Source: Escherichia coli
GTDB lineage: Bacteria > Pseudomonadota > Gammaproteobacteria > Enterobacterales > Enterobacteriaceae
Reading direction: 5' to 3' (one strand)
NCBI RefSeq assembly: GCF_003018115.1
Contig: NZ_CP027457.1
Length of the DNA stretch: 64,000 nt
Below the pieces are notes generated by a model. That model was not told the origin of the DNA. It was given only the letters and a program-made list of their open reading frames with translations, and made no database searches. Made by a program: the position numbers and the translations under genes. Shown here piece after piece: positions 4,896 to 20,866 of the stretch; within the stretch, counting starts at the first letter, position 1; each line of letters starts with the position of its first letter.

Positions 4896-5005
4896 TATCA
4901 ATTCCTATTGGTATTACAATGAATGGATAATAGCAATGCGTATTAACCATGGCAATAGCAAAACGTGTTTTGACCATCAATACGCAAGCGTATAAATTAA
5001 AACTT
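4896..5005. promoter_or_regulatory. Immunity-region divergent promoter/operator region (OR-like), with dyad sites ATAATAGCAATGCGTATTAA (about 4927-4946) and GCAATAGCAAAACGTGTTTTG (about 4952-4972)
   Basis: Intergenic between divergent cro-like and cI-like genes; dyad-symmetric repeats sharing AATAGCAA with the OL-like region at 7530-7577. Confidence 0.45.
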
Positions 5006-5698
5006 ATGAAAAAAGAAACTCTTGCTGATCGCTTAAACCTAGCGATGGAACAATCTGGGATGTCTCAAGGCGCTCTTGCAAAGGCGTCTGGCGTAGCTCA
5101 ACCCACAATCTGGAGACTGACAAGCGGCAACGCGCGCGGCTCAACAAAAATTGTTGAAATAGCGAATGCATTGGGTGTTCGAACAGAGTGGCTCTCATCA
5201 GGCATAGGCCCGATGAGAAATGACGGTCAACAATCAGGGAAGCCTACTGTCAACCATTCCAAATACTTCAAGATTGACGTTCTTGATATAGAAGTGAGTG
5301 CCGGGCCGGGAGTCATCAACCGTGAGTTTGTAGAAGTCCTACGCTCGGTTGAGTACTCGTTTGACGATGCTCGTCACATGTTCGATGGCAGGAAGGCGGA
5401 AAATATCCGCATCATTAACGTACGTGGTGACAGCATGTCAGGAACAATCGAACCAGGTGATCTGCTGTTCGTTGATATCACGGTTAAATCTTTCGACGGT
5501 GATGGCATCTATGCGTTTCTGTACGACGACACAGCCCATGTAAAGCGCCTGCAAATGATGAAGGATAAGCTGTTGGTTATCTCTGATAACAAGAGCTACT
5601 CACCGTGGGACCCGATCGAGAAAGACGAGATGAACCGGGTGTTCATTTTTGGGAAAGTCATCGGGAGCATGCCGCAGACCTACAGGAAGCATGGGTAG
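5006..5698 (+). CDS. cI: cI-like prophage repressor (N-terminal XRE-type HTH plus C-terminal S24/LexA-like autoprotease domain)
   Basis: HTH motif GMSQGALAKASGVAQPTIWRL; C-terminal region with GDSM Ser motif (RGDSMSGTIEPGDLLFVD) and downstream Lys (HVKRLQ). Start could also be the upstream ATG at 4949 (track); 5006 leaves room for operators. Confidence 0.8.
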   Translation: MKKETLADRLNLAMEQSGMSQGALAKASGVAQPTIWRLTSGNARGSTKIVEIANALGVRTEWLSSGIGPMRNDGQQSGKPTVNHSKYFKIDVLDIEVSAGPGVINREFVEVLRSVEYSFDDARHMFDGRKAENIRIINVRGDSMSGTIEPGDLLFVDITVKSFDGDGIYAFLYDDTAHVKRLQMMKDKLLVISDNKSYSPWDPIEKDEMNRVFIFGKVIGSMPQTYRKHG

Positions 5699-5821: not shown

Positions 5822-6844
5822 ATGAAAGATAACAGACAAAAAGTCGTTCATTATAAAAAAGCAGTAATCCCACACAGCAAATCATCATTACAAAACATAC
5901 TACTTAGTATTATAGGTGAGGGCGGCGTTGCAGAAAAAGTACTTAGTAGACAAGAAAAAATAACACCTTCAGATGAAAATTCGGGGTATCGTTTCTTAAA
6001 TAAAAGCGACACATACAAAACTATACTTTTTGGGCAACTGGTTTTATTTGAAAAAGACAAAAGCCAGTCTCTATTAGAGCTTAGTGATAATGTTAAATTT
6101 TATGACATTAACTCCATCACGTCTAATGATATAATTATTGATGGAGATAAACGTAGTGACAAAAAAAGAGAGTTTGTAGATTCAATTTTATATTTTGGTG
6201 TACTAAACAACCATGTCATGATCGTTCAATCCACATCGCTTCGAGCAAGGGAGCTTGAGGCGCATTTGAATTGGCTAATTAATACATTCACAGATGAAAA
6301 AGAATCTGTGTTAATGCTTCAAGATAAGCCATCCGAAGAAACGATGAAAAAAATGGAGAAAGCACCAGCCAAGAGCATAAAAATTGGTGGATTACCCATT
6401 ACTTCAGAAGTTAAAAATTCAGAGAACCAAACACCCTCCTTTTCAAATGGTTCGGTGAAGACAATAAAATACCGCCCAATAGGGAAAGGAGGTGCGCTAC
6501 TAAAAGCATTTTTTGGCGATAACTGGGCAAATGATATAAACATTAAAGATTCATTAGATGAGGCCAATTTACAAGTAAGCCTCGAGATTACATACTTCAG
6601 AAAAACAAATGATAGCGGTCAAGCTGTTATAGACAGTATTGCTACCTCACTACGACATCTAGATGAGGATGATATTAGCATCAAACTTCAAGGCGGTGGG
6701 GAAATAACGGGAAAAGAGATAAAATTATCCGGAAAAATTAGCGTTGAACATAACAATGGCATTATTGATGAAAATGATTTATTCTTAAAAATGCATAAGT
6801 GGCTGTTCTCAAAACTTGATGCCGGAGAATTGGTTGCAAAATAA
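5822..6844 (+). CDS. Hypothetical 340-aa soluble protein, first gene of a rexA-position two-gene module (candidate phage-exclusion component)
   Basis: Long ORF in a markedly AT-rich segment immediately downstream of cI on the same strand; no family recognised by eye; no predicted TM segment. Confidence 0.6.
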   Translation: MKDNRQKVVHYKKAVIPHSKSSLQNILLSIIGEGGVAEKVLSRQEKITPSDENSGYRFLNKSDTYKTILFGQLVLFEKDKSQSLLELSDNVKFYDINSITSNDIIIDGDKRSDKKREFVDSILYFGVLNNHVMIVQSTSLRARELEAHLNWLINTFTDEKESVLMLQDKPSEETMKKMEKAPAKSIKIGGLPITSEVKNSENQTPSFSNGSVKTIKYRPIGKGGALLKAFFGDNWANDINIKDSLDEANLQVSLEITYFRKTNDSGQAVIDSIATSLRHLDEDDISIKLQGGGEITGKEIKLSGKISVEHNNGIIDENDLFLKMHKWLFSKLDAGELVAK

Positions 6845-6865: not shown

Positions 6866-7372
6866 ATGAAATCGAACATCATCCACCTTATTGGTATGTT
6901 GGTCTTCTATTTTGCTGGTTACTTTTTGTTCAAGTTAGCATTGGGCTATATTACACCGGGTGTTGTCCTAACAGCTCCGTGGGCTGTGGTTGGACTCATG
7001 CAATTGCCATTATCATATTGTATACAAGCCATTTTTAAGGCAAATGAGGCCAATGACCACTCGTCTTTAACCCCTAGTGAGGTTAGGCGATTAGTGCCAA
7101 TAGTCAAATCCAAGAGACTGAAATTGGTTTTATTATTAGCTTTCTATGTATTTTCAACTTTGTTTGTAATCTTGGGGTTAATAGCAAGCACAAATGATCA
7201 AGCCCTACTCTTCAGGGTCTTAAAAATTTCAGGTGGATTACTCTTTATTTCTCTCTATACCAGTGTATTCGTTCATAAAATAATGGTTGAGCTTCAAGAG
7301 TTTAAAGCGTTATTAAACCGAAGAGAATCAGAGAAGAAGGAAAGAGAGTCACTCCTTGATAGATTAAAATGA
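6866..7372 (+). CDS. Hypothetical 168-aa membrane protein with four predicted TM helices and a charged C-terminal tail, second gene of the rexB-position module
   Basis: Hydrophobic stretches IIHLIGMLVFYFAGYFLFKLALGYI, VVLTAPWAVVGLMQLPLSYCIQAIF, LKLVLLLAFYVFSTLFVILGLIAS and GGLLFISLYTSVFVHKIMV; RBS AAGGAGG upstream; 21-nt gap from the upstream gene. Confidence 0.6.
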   Translation: MKSNIIHLIGMLVFYFAGYFLFKLALGYITPGVVLTAPWAVVGLMQLPLSYCIQAIFKANEANDHSSLTPSEVRRLVPIVKSKRLKLVLLLAFYVFSTLFVILGLIASTNDQALLFRVLKISGGLLFISLYTSVFVHKIMVELQEFKALLNRRESEKKERESLLDRLK

Positions 7373-7381
7373 CCCCCCCTC

Positions 7382-7408
7382 CCCGGCCGTCGTGCCGGGT
7401 TTTCTTTT
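7382..7408 (+). terminator. Rho-independent terminator (stem CCCGGC/GCCGGG, loop CGTCGT, then TTTTCTTTT)
   Basis: Read directly from sequence, 10 nt after the stop of the membrane-protein gene. Confidence 0.65.
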
Positions 7409-7529
7409 GCCTCCCCTCATCACACACCGTTCAAAAAACCACCATAACCCCCGCTTCAGTTATCGCTATGCGATGCAAGTCACAAAATTAATTCCTTTTG
7501 CTATCAAACAGTTAATATCAAAATACATC

Positions 7530-7577
7530 AATCAATAGCAATAAGTATTGATATCACCAATAGCAATAGCTATTATT
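7530..7577. promoter_or_regulatory. Candidate OL-like operators / pL region: TCAATAGCAATAAGTATTGA and CCAATAGCAATAGCTATTATT
   Basis: Dyad-symmetric sites sharing the AATAGCAAT core with the OR-like region; located upstream of the N-position ORF, as OL/pL are in lambda. Confidence 0.35.
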
Positions 7578-7649
7578 ACCATGTCGCAACAACACAACGA
7601 TACGGCAACCACCTGATTCGCCGTTGCGATGACCGCTTAGATCCGCAGC

Positions 7650-8060
7650 TTGAATTTCAGCAGGCTCCGGGGAGTGCGAGGGGTGAAGCGGACGCGTGAA
7701 CGTCGGTGTGACCAGCTGAAATCAACTCAACACTTCATACCTCAGTCGCTTCAACGAGGCGGCTTAGTTATGACAACCGGCGGCCATCCACCGCCTGAAT
7801 ACGCGCAGAAGTCTCTATATGTTCAGCAGCCCAGCTTACGGGCAGGAGTTTTTATGGTTCATCAACATTACGGAACTCAGACCGTTAATCGCGGTGCCGT
7901 CCGGCCAGGTATGCTGGTTAAACACAAAGATGGTACCTGGACGGCATCAGCTAATTTGCGCGGTCGGCTTTACTTGCATCGCGGCATCGAACGAACGTAC
8001 ACAAAAGATTTGCTCGTGGAGGTTTACCTGAATGGTACTGGCGGTGGTCTGAGCCACTAA
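7650..8060 (+). CDS. Putative N-like antitermination protein (arginine-rich motif near N-terminus); start codon uncertain
   Basis: Track ORF begins at a TTG; translation contains RGVKRTRERR, resembling the lambda N arginine-rich motif (TRRRERR). Alternative starts: GTG near 7683, ATG at 7770, ATG at 7854 (the last with AGGAG 5 nt upstream). Confidence 0.35.
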   Translation: MNFSRLRGVRGVKRTRERRCDQLKSTQHFIPQSLQRGGLVMTTGGHPPPEYAQKSLYVQQPSLRAGVFMVHQHYGTQTVNRGAVRPGMLVKHKDGTWTASANLRGRLYLHRGIERTYTKDLLVEVYLNGTGGGLSH

Positions 8061-8064
8061 CTAC

Positions 8065-8370
8065 TCACTTGTTTGGGCCGTGTGGAGCCAAAGCAAATTC
8101 AAGGTTGTAGATACTCCCATCAGGGGCTTTGAAATCAACCTCAAACCGAGATGGCGGATTGAATGGATCGAGTACATTTTCTGCTACGCATGTAGATCTC
8201 CAATTGATATGGCCTTTGCCAAGCGAGCGAGATTCCCACCAAGCTCTCCAGGTCTGGTCTTGCGGTTGATCACTCCCCTTTTCCCTTACATACCAATGAT
8301 TCTTTTTCGACTGCTTACCCATTTCTGCGGTTGGGTACATCGGAGAAGACTTTAACTTATCAATCAGCAT
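8065..8370 (-). CDS. Hypothetical 101-aa protein encoded antisense to the early-left operon
   Basis: ORF on the opposite strand with AAGGTG 6 nt upstream of the ATG at 8370 (track extends to an upstream GTG at 8379); no recognisable family; no TM segment. Confidence 0.4.
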   Translation of the reverse strand: MLIDKLKSSPMYPTAEMGKQSKKNHWYVREKGSDQPQDQTWRAWWESRSLGKGHINWRSTCVAENVLDPFNPPSRFEVDFKAPDGSIYNLEFALAPHGPNK

Positions 8371-8508
8371 TCTAGACACCTTATTTATCAGATTTTGAGC
8401 AAGACATAGTGTGATCCAACATTTTGATTAATCAAGCGAGTTCATTCAAACAACTATGCAGTTAACGCACTGTCTGGATCCGCACATCAAAATTTCAGGA
8501 GTTTATCC

Positions 8509-8805
8509 ATGAACGCTTATTACATTCAGGATCGTCTTGAGGCTCAGAGCTGGGCGCGTCACTACCAGCAGATCGCCCGTGAAGAGAAAGAGGCAGAACT
8601 GGCAGACGACATGGAAAAAGGCCTGCCCCAGCACCTGTTTGAATCACTCTGCATCGATCATTTGCAACGCCACGGGGCCAGCAAAAAAGCCATTACCCGT
8701 GCGTTTGATGACGATGTTGAGTTTCAGGAGCGCATGGCAGAACACATCCGGTACATGGTTGAAACCATTGCTCACCACCAGGTTGATATTGATTCAGAGG
8801 TATAA
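8509..8805 (+). CDS. gam: Gam (RecBCD inhibitor), 98-aa form
   Basis: [60 protein letters not shown]... matches lambda Gam as recalled; AGGAG RBS. Confidence 0.95.
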
Positions 8806-8810
8806 AACGG

Positions 8811-9596
8811 ATGAGTACAGCACTCGCAACGCTGGCTGGGAAGCTGGCTGAACGTGTCGGCATGGATTCTGTCGACCCACAGGAACTGATCACCACTCTT
8901 CGCCAGACAGCATTTAAAGGCGATGCCAGCGATGCGCAGTTCATCGCATTGCTGATCGTCGCCAACCAATACGGCCTTAATCCGTGGACGAAAGAAATTT
9001 ACGCCTTCCCCGATAAGCAGAACGGCATCGTTCCGGTGGTGGGCGTTGATGGCTGGTCCCGCATCATCAACGAAAACCAGCAGTTTGACGGCATGGACTT
9101 TGAACAGGACAACGAATCCTGCACATGCCGGATTTACCGCAAAGACCGCAATCATCCGATCTGCGTTACCGAGTGGATGGATGAATGCCGCCGCGAACCA
9201 TTCAAAACCCGCGAAGGCAGAGAAATCACGGGGCCGTGGCAGTCGCATCCCAAACGGATGTTACGGCATAAAGCCATGATTCAGTGTGCCCGTCTCGCCT
9301 TCGGATTTGCTGGTATCTATGACAAGGATGAAGCCGAGCGCATTGTCGAAAATACCGCATACACTGCAGAACGTCAGCCGGAACGCGACATCACTCCGGT
9401 TAACGATGAAACCATGCAGGAGATTAACACTCTGCTGATTGCCCTGGATAAAACATGGGATGACGACTTATTGCCGCTCTGTTCCCAGATATTTCGCCGC
9501 GACATTCGCGCATCGTCAGAACTGACACAGGCCGAAGCAGTGAAAGCTCTTGGATTCCTGAAACAGAAAGCCACTGAGCAGAAGGTGGCAGCATGA
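8811..9596 (+). CDS. bet: Bet (Red-beta single-strand annealing protein), 261 aa
   Basis: Full-length match to lambda Bet as recalled ([66 protein letters not shown]...). Confidence 0.95.
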
Positions 9597-10273
9597 CACC
9601 GTACATTATCCTGCAGCGTACCGGGATCGACGTGAGAGCTGTCGAACAGGGGGATGATGCATGGCACAAATTACGGCTCGGCGTCATCACCGCTTCAGAA
9701 GTTCACAACGTGATAGCAAAGCCCCGATCAGGAAAGAAGTGGCCTGACATGAAAATGTCCTACTTCCACACCCTGCTGGCTGAGGTTTGCACCGGTGTGG
9801 CTCCGGAAGTTAATGCTAAGGCGCTGGCCTGGGGAAAACAGTACGAGAACGACGCCAGAACCCTGTTTGAATTCACTTCCGGCGTGAATATTACTGAATC
9901 CCCGATCATCTATCGCGACGAAAGTATGCGCACCGCCTGCTCTCCCGATGGTTTATGCAGTGACGGCAACGGCCTTGAACTGAAATGCCCGTTTACCTCC
10001 CGGGATTTCATGAAATTCCGGCTCGGTGGTTTCGAGGCAATAAAATCGGCTTACATGGCCCAGGTGCAGTACAGCATGTGGGTGACGCGAAAAGATGCCT
10101 GGTACTTTGCCAACTATGACCCGCGCATGAAGCGTGAAGGCCTGCATTATGTCGTGATTGAGCGGAATGAAAAGTACATGGCGAGTTTTGACGAGATGGT
10201 GCCGGAGTTCATCGAAAAAATGGACGAGGCACTGGCTGAAATTGGTTTTGTATTTGGGGAGCAATGGCGATGA
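9593..10273 (+). CDS. exo: Lambda exonuclease (Red-alpha), 226 aa
   Basis: [54 protein letters not shown]... matches lambda Exo as recalled; ATGA overlap with the bet stop. Confidence 0.95.
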
Positions 10274-10452
10274 CGCATCCTCACGATAATATCCGGGTAG
10301 GCGCGATCACTTTCGTCTACTCCGTTACAAAGCGAGGCTGGGTATTTCCCGGCCTTTCTGTTATCAGAAATCCACTGAAAGCACAGCGGCTGGCTGAGAA
10401 GATAAATAATAAACGGGAGGCGGTATGCACAAAGCATCTCCTGTTGAGTTAA
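10264..10452 (+). CDS. Small hypothetical phage protein (62 aa), lambda orf60a/orf61/orf63-position
   Basis: ORF overlapping the exo stop; position corresponds to the small orfs between exo and xis in lambda. Confidence 0.45.
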
Positions 10453-19529: not shown

Positions 19530-19999
19530 ATATATTCCTTCAATCTCATTTATCGACTCCACATCCGTATATAACCGATTACTTTATTTAAGACACTGAT
19601 AGTAGTAAATTCCTTTTTATCCTCTAAGAATGTCTTAATTGAAAATATGCACTCTATTCTAAAAAATAGAGAGCCCCGTTAGATGAATACTTCCGCGCAA
19701 AATATATTCAACACAAATATAGACCTGAAGCGGTAAATTACCAGGCTGAAAATTCTTTTTATATTGTCAGGTATTTCTTAAATTATCTTAATCCTTAGAC
19801 AAGGAAATAAATCAGTTCCAGATTTACAACGCCATCATGGACGAAAAATGAAGCTTTCAATCTCAGCGACAGTGCGCCTCACCTTCGCAAGAGGTCGCTT
19901 CACGCGATAAATCTGAAACGAAACCTGACAGCGCGCCCCGCTTCTGACAAAATAGGCGCATCCCCTTCGACCTACGTAACAGATGGAATCCTCTCTCTG

Positions 20000-20866
20000 A
20001 TGGCAGCAAAGATTATTGACGGTAAAACGATTGCGCAGCAGGTGCGCTCTGAAGTTGCTCAAAAAGTTCAGGCGCGTATTGCAGCCGGACTGCGGGCACC
20101 AGGACTGGCCGTTGTGCTGGTGGGTAGTAACCCTGCATCGCAAATTTATGTCGCAAGCAAACGCAAGGCTTGTGAAGAAGTCGGGTTCGTCTCCCGCTCT
20201 TACGACCTCCCGGAAACCACCAGCGAAGCGGAGCTGCTGGAGCTTATCGATGCGCTGAATGCCGATAACACCATCGATGGCATTCTGGTTCAACTGCCGT
20301 TACCGGCGGGTATTGATAACGTCAAAGTGCTGGAACGTATACACCCGGACAAAGACGTAGACGGTTTCCATCCTTATAACGTCGGTCGCCTGTGCCAGCG
20401 CGCGCCGCGTCTGCGTCCCTGCACCCCGCGCGGTATTGTCACGCTGCTTGAGCGTTACAACATTGATACCTTCGGCCTCAACGCCGTGGTGATTGGCGCA
20501 TCGAATATCGTTGGCCGCCCGATGAGCATGGAACTGCTACTGGCAGGTTGCACCACCACCGTGACTCACCGTTTCACTAAAAATCTGCGTCACCACGTAG
20601 AAAATGCCGATCTACTGATCGTTGCCGTCGGTAAGCCAGGTTTTATTCCCGGTGACTGGATCAAAGAAGGCGCAATTGTGATTGATGTCGGCATCAACCG
20701 TCTGGAAAATGGCAAAGTTGTGGGCGACGTGGTGTTTGAAGACGCGGCTAAACGCGCCTCATACATTACGCCTGTTCCGGGCGGCGTTGGCCCGATGACG
20801 GTTGCCACGCTGATTGAAAACACGCTACAGGCGTGCGTTGAATATCATGATCCACAGGGTGAGTAA
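20000..20866 (+). CDS. folD: Bifunctional methylenetetrahydrofolate dehydrogenase / methenyl-THF cyclohydrolase
   Basis: 288-aa translation matches FolD as recalled. Confidence 0.97.

Follow-up and report, generated by a model that had tools for sequence, protein, structure and literature searches.

Does the open reading frame that directly follows the operator-like sites of this lambdoid prophage encode an N-type antiterminator initiated at a non-ATG codon, or does its arginine-rich segment stand by coincidence in front of a shorter protein? Both possibilities were put forward in an initial annotation of positions 7409–8060 of a 64,000-nucleotide stretch of Escherichia coli DNA (hereafter the window). 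Our answer, which we regard as very probably correct, is that the locus consists of kil behind an untranslated PL leader and an RNA cassette, in a prophage without an N gene, and that the reading frame upstream of kil is non-coding.

In its first 10 kb the window holds, on the + strand, a lambdoid prophage's left arm, which is of the Bievrevirus type (like 4A7 and Perceval), and the closest sequenced phages make up the Bievrevirus group: 4A7, Perceval, the PhiR series, Turner and IdasGreatGrand. The features that bear on the question are collected in Table 1. The hairpin of the cI-operon terminator spans 7382–7399 with the T-run after it, and position 7409, given as the start of the region, is the end of this T-run, outside the reading frame and out of frame with 7650. 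The operator-like sites do lie upstream of the frame, as first described, and are accompanied by a sigma-70-like promoter, the repeats overlapping the promoter hexamers; the OL segment varies by immunity type, while its flanks are common. Transcription from this promoter is predicted to start at about 7581–7583, and homology between phages of differing immunity begins at 7584, just past that predicted start. We infer that 7584–7853 forms a 270-nt untranslated 5′ leader of the PL transcript.

Table 1. Positions of predicted features in the left arm of the prophage (window coordinates).
Feature	Position	Strand	Description
S24-peptidase/HTH repressor	4949–5698	+	
Two rex-position genes	5822–6844, 6866–7372	+	
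Intrinsic terminator of the cI/rex-position operon	7382–7409	+	CCCGGC-CGTCGT-GCCGGG then TTTTCTTTTG; found by terminator scan
Operator-like repeats (OL)	7487–7581		24-nt direct repeats 7533–7556 and 7558–7581; third related arm 7487–7507
PL-like sigma-70 promoter	7548–7576	+	TTGATA, 17 nt, TATTAT; 10/12 matches
5′ module of PL leader, putatively non-coding	7584–7733	+	Conserved in the Bievrevirus-like group only; includes the arginine-rich codons
RGVKRTRERR codons	7677–7706	+	Predicted untranslated leader, no protein arginine-rich motif
Hairpin 1	7735–7773	+	Loop AAC 7753–7755; C7743 bulged
Hairpin 2	7779–7795	+	GGCGG, loop CCAUCCA, CCGCC; near-invariant across genera
Conserved linker GAAGUCU...GUUC	7808–7824	+	In nearly all of 70 distinct 3′ parts
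Hairpin 3	7829–7843	+	GCCC, loop AGCUUAC, GGGC; directly abuts the Shine-Dalgarno
Shine-Dalgarno of kil, AGGAG	7844–7848	+	5 nt 5′ of the ATG
kil, Kil/KilR-family cell-division (FtsZ) inhibitor	7854–8060	+	68 aa, 207 nt; ATG start, stop 8058–8060
gam	8509–8805	+	
bet	8811–9596	+	
exo	9593–10273	+	

The reading frame and the RGVKRTRERR codons within it are where they had been placed. The frame runs from TTG 7650 to the stop of kil (136 codons), is open from 7641 with an in-frame TAG just before (7638–7640), and includes kil as its C-terminal part. It is also true that no in-frame ATG precedes the arginine-rich segment; the only two, at 7770 and 7854, both lie 3′ of it. The segment resembles the arginine-rich motif of lambda N in composition. 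When the 64-kb window is translated in all six frames, though, decapeptides with at least five R and at least six R/K turn up in 36 separate places, and an equally arginine-rich decapeptide arose in 5.9% of dinucleotide-preserving shuffles of 7650–7853. Because similar decapeptides are so frequent by chance, RGVKRTRERR alone carries little weight.

The protein that begins at ATG 7854 matches phrog_294 (‘Kil protein for bacterial septation inhibition’; E = 1.6e-35, residues 1–67) as well as NCBIfam NF008465 (‘FtsZ inhibitor protein’; E = 9.2e-17), for which residues 1–66 align with profile positions 1–68 and residue 1 falls on position 1. As the NF008465 score (60.8 bits) is under the curated cut-off of 92, we treat Kil here as a homologue of KilR, not as an equivalog. 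In a version of 96 residues from ATG 7770, the extra 28 residues fall outside the NF008465 profile. An alignment shows an N-terminus, MxxQHYGT, common to this Kil and those of phi80 and HK225, the overall identity to phi80 Kil being 39%. Residues 1–68 are intact in all 80 of the 80 related loci, and both here and in relatives the genes after kil are gam, bet and exo. In the two genomes inspected, the RefSeq coding sequence starts exactly at the equivalent of 7854 (207 nt) and the leader is without annotation; nor did any of the E. coli matches listed carry a leader annotation. Of 5426 complete E. coli genomes, 2313 carry the leader itself.

These comparisons demonstrate that kil is the sole conserved gene predicted within 7409–8060. 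Its product is predicted to be a full-length protein of the Kil/KilR type, already known and annotated, and by homology with KilR it may inhibit FtsZ. The second of the two original suggestions, that of a coincidental motif and a shorter protein made from ATG 7854 behind a strong ribosome-binding site, has thus held up: the site is there, profiles and RefSeq agree on the start, and the protein is Kil, not N.

Upstream of kil the same frame behaves quite differently. All eight sequenced relatives retain the 68-aa reading frame, whereas three of them carry an in-frame TAG (C7743T) and two others single-base frameshifts between the arginine-rich segment and ATG 7854; of 66 leader-bearing copies on viral contigs, 23 have a TAG or a frameshift that breaks the upstream frame. 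Across 54 distinct sequences, variable sites are distributed over the three codon positions as 18:9:16 in 7650–7853, compared with 7:6:36 in kil. Within one kil allele class, the leader has a diversity of 0.026, which compares with 0.0006 at codon positions 1 and 2 of kil and 0.048 at position 3. In the close group the leader appears to be mildly constrained non-coding sequence, about half as diverse as synonymous sites. A larger contrast, in which the leader seemed to evolve five times slower than kil synonymous sites, was dropped: the five-fold figure arose because two kil allele classes adjoined one shared leader, and within one class the difference is about two-fold.

Database comparisons point the same way. 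The upstream 68 codons gave no match in Pfam, PHROG or NCBIfam and no BLASTP alignment to phi80 N, and a tblastn search of 50,697 phage records with these codons had no other target than this leader, which it hit in 16 related phages. Some observations run counter to a non-coding reading. The 71 open codons remain open in about two-thirds of copies, the commonest three polymorphisms in 7650–7742 (at 7667, 7688 and 7733) are at third positions, and a GGGGAG lies 8 nt 5′ of GTG 7683, a codon that is ATG in two of the 54 variants. Nonetheless, the interruptions and the codon-position pattern together demonstrate that the upstream 71 codons are, as judged from sequence variation, no conserved coding sequence, and RGVKRTRERR is therefore best regarded as the conceptual translation of a purine-rich leader.

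Two observations had been named beforehand as counting against an N gene at this place, namely the lack of a nut-like RNA hairpin upstream and the lack of conservation of the arginine-rich segment in homologues, and both were made. In the leader, a boxA was not found even with two mismatches allowed to the lambda, P22 or rrn consensus, nor was a boxB in the form of a short stem capped by a pentaloop of purines, and the folding energy is ordinary; the arginine-rich segment lies in a frame that is broken in many relatives and lacks codon periodicity. The proposed alignment with N proteins likewise yielded nothing, neither with phi80 N nor with any N family. Elsewhere in the phage the picture is similar: no N gene is annotated in the curated Perceval or RefSeq 4A7 records, both of which annotate Q, and among the other early reading frames none has an N-terminal arginine-rich motif except a 46-aa frame adjoining Q. 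The Bievrevirus-type lineage thus has no N gene at the N position, and its PL leader is joined straight to the RNA cassette described below. Lambdoid phages without N have been acknowledged before, with put-like mechanisms merely conjectured for them (PMC12315714), and other phage groups may carry N-like genes in the PR operon (PMC11893012). We found neither a put-like mechanism nor a PR-operon N-like gene in the prophage studied here.

How, then, do the readings fare that would have the upstream codons or the longer frame translated? An N-type antiterminator starting at TTG 7650 or at GTG 7674 or 7683, with RGVKRTRERR binding a boxB-like hairpin of the PL leader, would suit a frame placed directly 3′ of OL/PL in a lineage that offers no other candidate for N. 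Yet the frame is cut off from its C-terminal part in five of eight viable phages and in the 23 contig copies noted above, that C-terminal half is Kil and contains no N-like NusA- or RNA polymerase-binding region, and codon periodicity, N similarity, boxA and boxB are all lacking for a motif of a sort common by chance; the idea is exceedingly improbable and already largely refuted. The GGGGAG, the ATG variants and the three common third-position changes might instead speak for a short arginine-rich peptide from GTG 7683 (MKRTRERRCDQLKSTQHFIP...), translated separately and with an RNA-binding role. Depending on the phage, however, such a product would stop after 20 residues, run on for 79–136, or be fused to Kil; its overall codon-position pattern is flat, and its homologues occur only in the same leader. 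Lambda N needs contacts with NusA and RNA polymerase, which 20 residues are too few to supply, and we hold this peptide to be highly improbable. A 96-aa isoform of Kil from ATG 7770 (MTTGGHPPP...) is somewhat differently placed, as this ATG is in frame with kil in the window, is near-invariant together with the next 26 nt, and, in the records of PhiR5_1, IdasGreatGrand and Turner, heads coding sequences of 291 or 282 nt. Against it, ATG 7770 takes part in the pairing at the base of hairpin 1 and lacks a Shine-Dalgarno at a suitable distance, and the 28 added residues are those outside the KilR profile. The same ATG elsewhere opens reading frames of 9–197 codons that end before unrelated genes; at least 11 contexts have the invariant nucleotides in a different frame, which reads RRPSTA or KLAAIHRP. 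In L037 a stop closes the frame after 10 codons, and in PhiR30_1, Turner and L038 a frame shift ahead of kil separates the two. The longer isoform is very unlikely, and the comparative data settle the start of kil at ATG 7854.

If the leader is not translated, its sequence might be conserved as RNA, and here its two parts differ. For the 5′ module, RNAalifold proposed helices that are without compensatory changes and that a divergent subgroup breaks, and the folding z-score is about 0; structure in 7584–7733 was accordingly rejected. The 5′ end of the leader is CA-rich (CACAAC). An AgvB-like anti-sRNA was considered and set aside, there being no match to RF02702 and the published position of AgvB being downstream of PR′. 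Because HK639 appeared among the distant matches and its record annotates a putL-like RNA, we also compared the leader with HK022 putL and putR and with HK639 putL; only chance-level word matches were found, and a put-like RNA was rejected on this comparison. Searches by BLAST and covariance model revealed no second copy of any leader segment or of the cassette in the window or in Perceval.

The 3′ 120 nt of the leader are another matter. Here, at 7735–7853, three hairpins form a cassette, the third of them adjoining the kil ribosome-binding site. In hairpin 1, positions 7735–7739, 7741–7742 and 7744–7752 pair with 7756–7764, 7766–7767 and 7769–7773, and at its foot CAUA pairs with UAUG, which sequesters the ATG at 7770–7772. 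The sequence of hairpin 1 differs in almost every phage, yet its complementarity is kept. Across 10 diverse sequences, 97.5% of cells were paired and seven of the 11 hairpin-1 pairs had two-sided changes; the covariation score was reached by none of 500 shuffles, and controls slid along the same 10 sequences were 31–53% paired. RNAalifold found the same helices independently. In 52 distinct sequences, whose alignment was fitted to a covariance model and seeded on hairpin 2, the paired fraction was 98.6% of cells, with 101 two-sided cells. In all, eight pairs of the cassette have compensatory changes, and the covariation support is strong. As U-G pairs are frequent, the structure belongs to the + strand RNA, which is the PL transcript. 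Hairpin 2 is without covariation because its sequence is invariant, an invariance for which the search pattern was partly responsible in the larger set. The variants of hairpin 3 in other phages keep their pairing as judged by eye (GCGC/GCGC, GCCC/GGGC, GCC/GGC), and 7824–7853 is the least variable segment (pi = 0.002). The C-to-T change at 7743 that makes a stop codon in three of the relatives affects the one bulged base of hairpin 1; it is predicted to do no harm to the RNA but to destroy the supposed protein. Taken together, these patterns demonstrate a conserved predicted RNA structure in the 3′ part of the leader.

The cassette is not confined to the Bievrevirus group. It occurs in HK225, phi80 and HK639, and also in Klebsiella phage KO-TP1, Enterobacter phages BHUENT6 and CobraSix, and Salmonella phage S9-5, with one copy per phage. 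In other lambdoid phages its place is right behind the first intrinsic terminator of the PL operon; in 62 of 93 contexts it directly follows the T-run of an intrinsic terminator, and it precedes at least eight unrelated genes. The genes 5′ of the cassette are diverse; considered as N homologues in the other phages, they proved to be of many kinds with no assigned function, and this idea was abandoned. In the window, neither hairpin 1 nor hairpin 2 leads into a U-tract: the nucleotides after hairpin 1 are UUAUGAC, which are themselves paired within its stem, and those after hairpin 2 are UGAAUACG. The terminator scan called no intrinsic terminator at hairpin 1 or hairpin 2. Rfam 15 covariance models run over 7300–8500 gave a best E of 1.3, all hits being far below the gathering scores, and the invariant hairpin-2 sequence is printed in none of the papers searched for it. 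The unnamed RNA cassette is the only part of this locus with some novelty, being absent from Rfam and spread across several enterobacterial phage groups. We would give an even chance to the proposal that it represents an undescribed family of cis-acting regulatory RNAs in lambdoid early-left operons of Escherichia, Klebsiella, Enterobacter and Salmonella, located behind the first PL terminator or, in the N-less Bievrevirus type, behind PL itself, where it would control the delayed-early gene that follows, in this case the toxic kil, and that its form joined to the leader is present in about 40% of complete E. coli genomes.

What the leader and its cassette do can be narrowed by weighing two devices. 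In one, the leader would take the place of N as an antiterminator made of RNA, in the manner of put in HK022 and HK639. The absence of N, the suspicion of put-like RNAs in N-less lambdoids (PMC12315714), a conserved leader, non-coding and located at the very start of the PL transcript like HK022 putL, and terminator-like sites further along the operon at 10334 and 10935 would all fit such a device. They have to be set against the lack of sequence similarity to HK022 putL/putR or HK639 putL, a 5′ module (7584–7733) without supported structure, and the occurrence of just one copy in each phage, with no space near cro for another on the PR side; moreover, the cassette coexists with a putL in HK639 and with an annotated N in phi80, in both cases 3′ of a terminator. 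A put-like role is quite unlikely. In the other, the cassette would be a leader-peptide attenuator, in which a polyproline stall in MTTGGHPPP would control Rho-dependent termination or downstream translation. This peptide is encoded in 75 of 93 contexts, a conserved ending, ...EVLY and the stop, is common to many of the small reading frames, two variants with a frame shift come back into frame and retain 21 codons, and the phi80 record annotates a Rho-dependent tL1B downstream. In at least 11 of the 93 contexts, however, the frame is lost, and lengths range over 9–197 codons; since neither frame nor length is kept, we reject MTTGGHPPP as a conserved peptide. Synonymous positions are invariant, which implies constraint at the nucleotide level, ATG 7770 is sequestered and without a spaced Shine-Dalgarno, and in the window the small frame has no stop before kil. 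We consider an attenuator of this kind unlikely. With low confidence, we prefer to see in the cassette an element that acts in cis, on translation or on stability, rather than a terminator, a leader-peptide attenuator or an antiterminator of the put kind. As hairpin 3 abuts the Shine-Dalgarno, the cassette would most likely set the translation initiation or the stability of the next gene.

Under the preferred reading, of kil behind an untranslated leader, events at this locus could run as follows. On loss of the repressor, RNA polymerase would start at PL, at about the position predicted above, and would transcribe the 270-nt leader without its being translated. Ribosomes would then initiate at 7854, and Kil, to judge from its family profile match, may block FtsZ-dependent septation as described for Rac KilR. 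The cassette would act in cis on the same transcript, most likely on the translation initiation or the stability of the first gene behind it.

For annotation, the consequences are modest but practical. GenBank records give the kil gene lengths of 207, 234, 282, 291, 378 and 420 nt, some of which take in the leader, an uncertainty over the start that the initial annotation shared, and one pair of records names the gene ‘membrane carboxypeptidase’. The analysis also removes a false lead: in place of a non-ATG-initiated N gene there is an ordinary, annotated kil, in a very common prophage lineage that lacks any N gene. If the cassette does regulate delayed-early expression, it would offer a new handle on how N-less lambdoid phages time kil and the recombination genes.

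Set beside known systems, the locus shares with lambda N its map position directly 3′ of OL/PL, and the run of arginine and lysine codons is alike in composition. It differs from lambda N with nutL in having no conserved translation, N homology, boxA/boxB or second site on the PR side. What the leader has in common with HK022 putL/putR and the putL-like RNA of HK639 is that it is conserved, non-coding and starts where the PL transcript does, in a lambdoid phage without N; the HK022 element is an RNA of about 70 nt with two stem-loops, to which the leader here, present in a single copy, bears no resemblance in sequence or structure. In other phages the structured part comes after terminators, and in HK639 the cassette coexists with putL. 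The region of phi80 annotated as ‘tL1 regulatory signal terminator’ (M11919) is homologous, the cassette overlapping the start of the functionally mapped tL1, and the second terminator annotated in HK639 is hairpin 2 of the cassette. Hairpins 1 and 2 of the window, which are without a U-tract, do not conform to the terminator label used in phi80 and HK639, and because most phages have a canonical terminator immediately 5′ of the cassette, the cassette itself would appear to be something additional. As for the protein, no test that we ran related this Kil to the 47-aa Kil of lambda. Its counterparts are Rac KilR and the Kil proteins of phi80 and HK225, with low identity in the case of phi80 and an NF008465 score below the curated cut-off, but with the same length class (68 as against 69–73 aa), the same N-terminus, full-length profile matches and the same site just 5′ of gam, bet and exo.

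A three-hairpin RNA cassette forms the 3' part of the PL leader in the window's prophage and is common to lambdoid phages from four genera, its usual place being immediately 3' of the first PL-operon terminator. Covariation is strong in hairpin 1. The cassette is absent from Rfam 15, and we did not find its sequence printed in the literature searched.

Coordinates of the features discussed, in the window or in comparison loci (L-numbers)
Feature	Location	Strand	Position or annotation
Two genes in the rexA/rexB position	window 5822-6844 and 6866-7372		between cI and terminator
CA-rich, G-poor run UCGCAACAACACAACGAUACGGCAACCACC	window 7584-7613		start of PL transcript
Three-hairpin RNA cassette	window 7735-7853; L004 2475-2610; L005 (phi80) 1995-2130; L006 1995-2140; L096-L099		
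104-aa ORF	window 8065-8379	-	between kil and gam, opposite orientation
phi80 'N'	L005 1685-1981		annotated N protein
PERCE_57, 46-aa ORF	L015 (Perceval) 19883-20023		PR operon, directly upstream of Q
PR operon start, RefSeq copy of the window's prophage	L221 64-861		cro/cII positions

The annotated phi80 N protein has no arginine-rich motif at its N-terminus and belongs to phrog_25091, a PHROG without assigned function; it has been called an N analogue on the basis of position and old genetics. An N-terminal arginine-rich stretch, AERLRRRWVR, is found in PERCE_57, which is annotated as hypothetical in Perceval.

Annotation at the kil locus contains errors. The gene is misnamed 'membrane carboxypeptidase' in the GenBank records of phages 1W and 3W (OM475428 and OM475430), and in PhiR30_1 (PV340558, L009 705-911) the Kil label is wrongly placed on an out-of-frame leader ORF, which arises from a +1 T. 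The 104-aa ORF that follows kil, a hypothetical protein in RefSeq, matches phrog_16212 (E=1e-69), likewise a PHROG without assigned function. Because sequenced Bievrevirus relatives have only ~75 nt between kil and gam at this position, the ORF looks like an inserted moron.

Neither of the two rex-position genes has a match in Pfam, and in Perceval the second carries a transmembrane-protein annotation. Together they make a candidate exclusion or defence pair expressed from the prophage.

At the 5' end of the PL transcript, the CACAAC within the CA-rich run resembles the GcvB R1 target consensus CACAACA, and the phi80 and HK639 leaders carry an analogous repeat, CGAAACGAAAC, at their start. On the PR side, the cro and cII positions of the RefSeq copy of the prophage, where its PR operon begins, are occupied by an HTH protein and a protein annotated as 'toxin YdaT domain-containing protein'. 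This is a Rac-like ydaS/ydaT arrangement, unlike the cro/cII of lambda.
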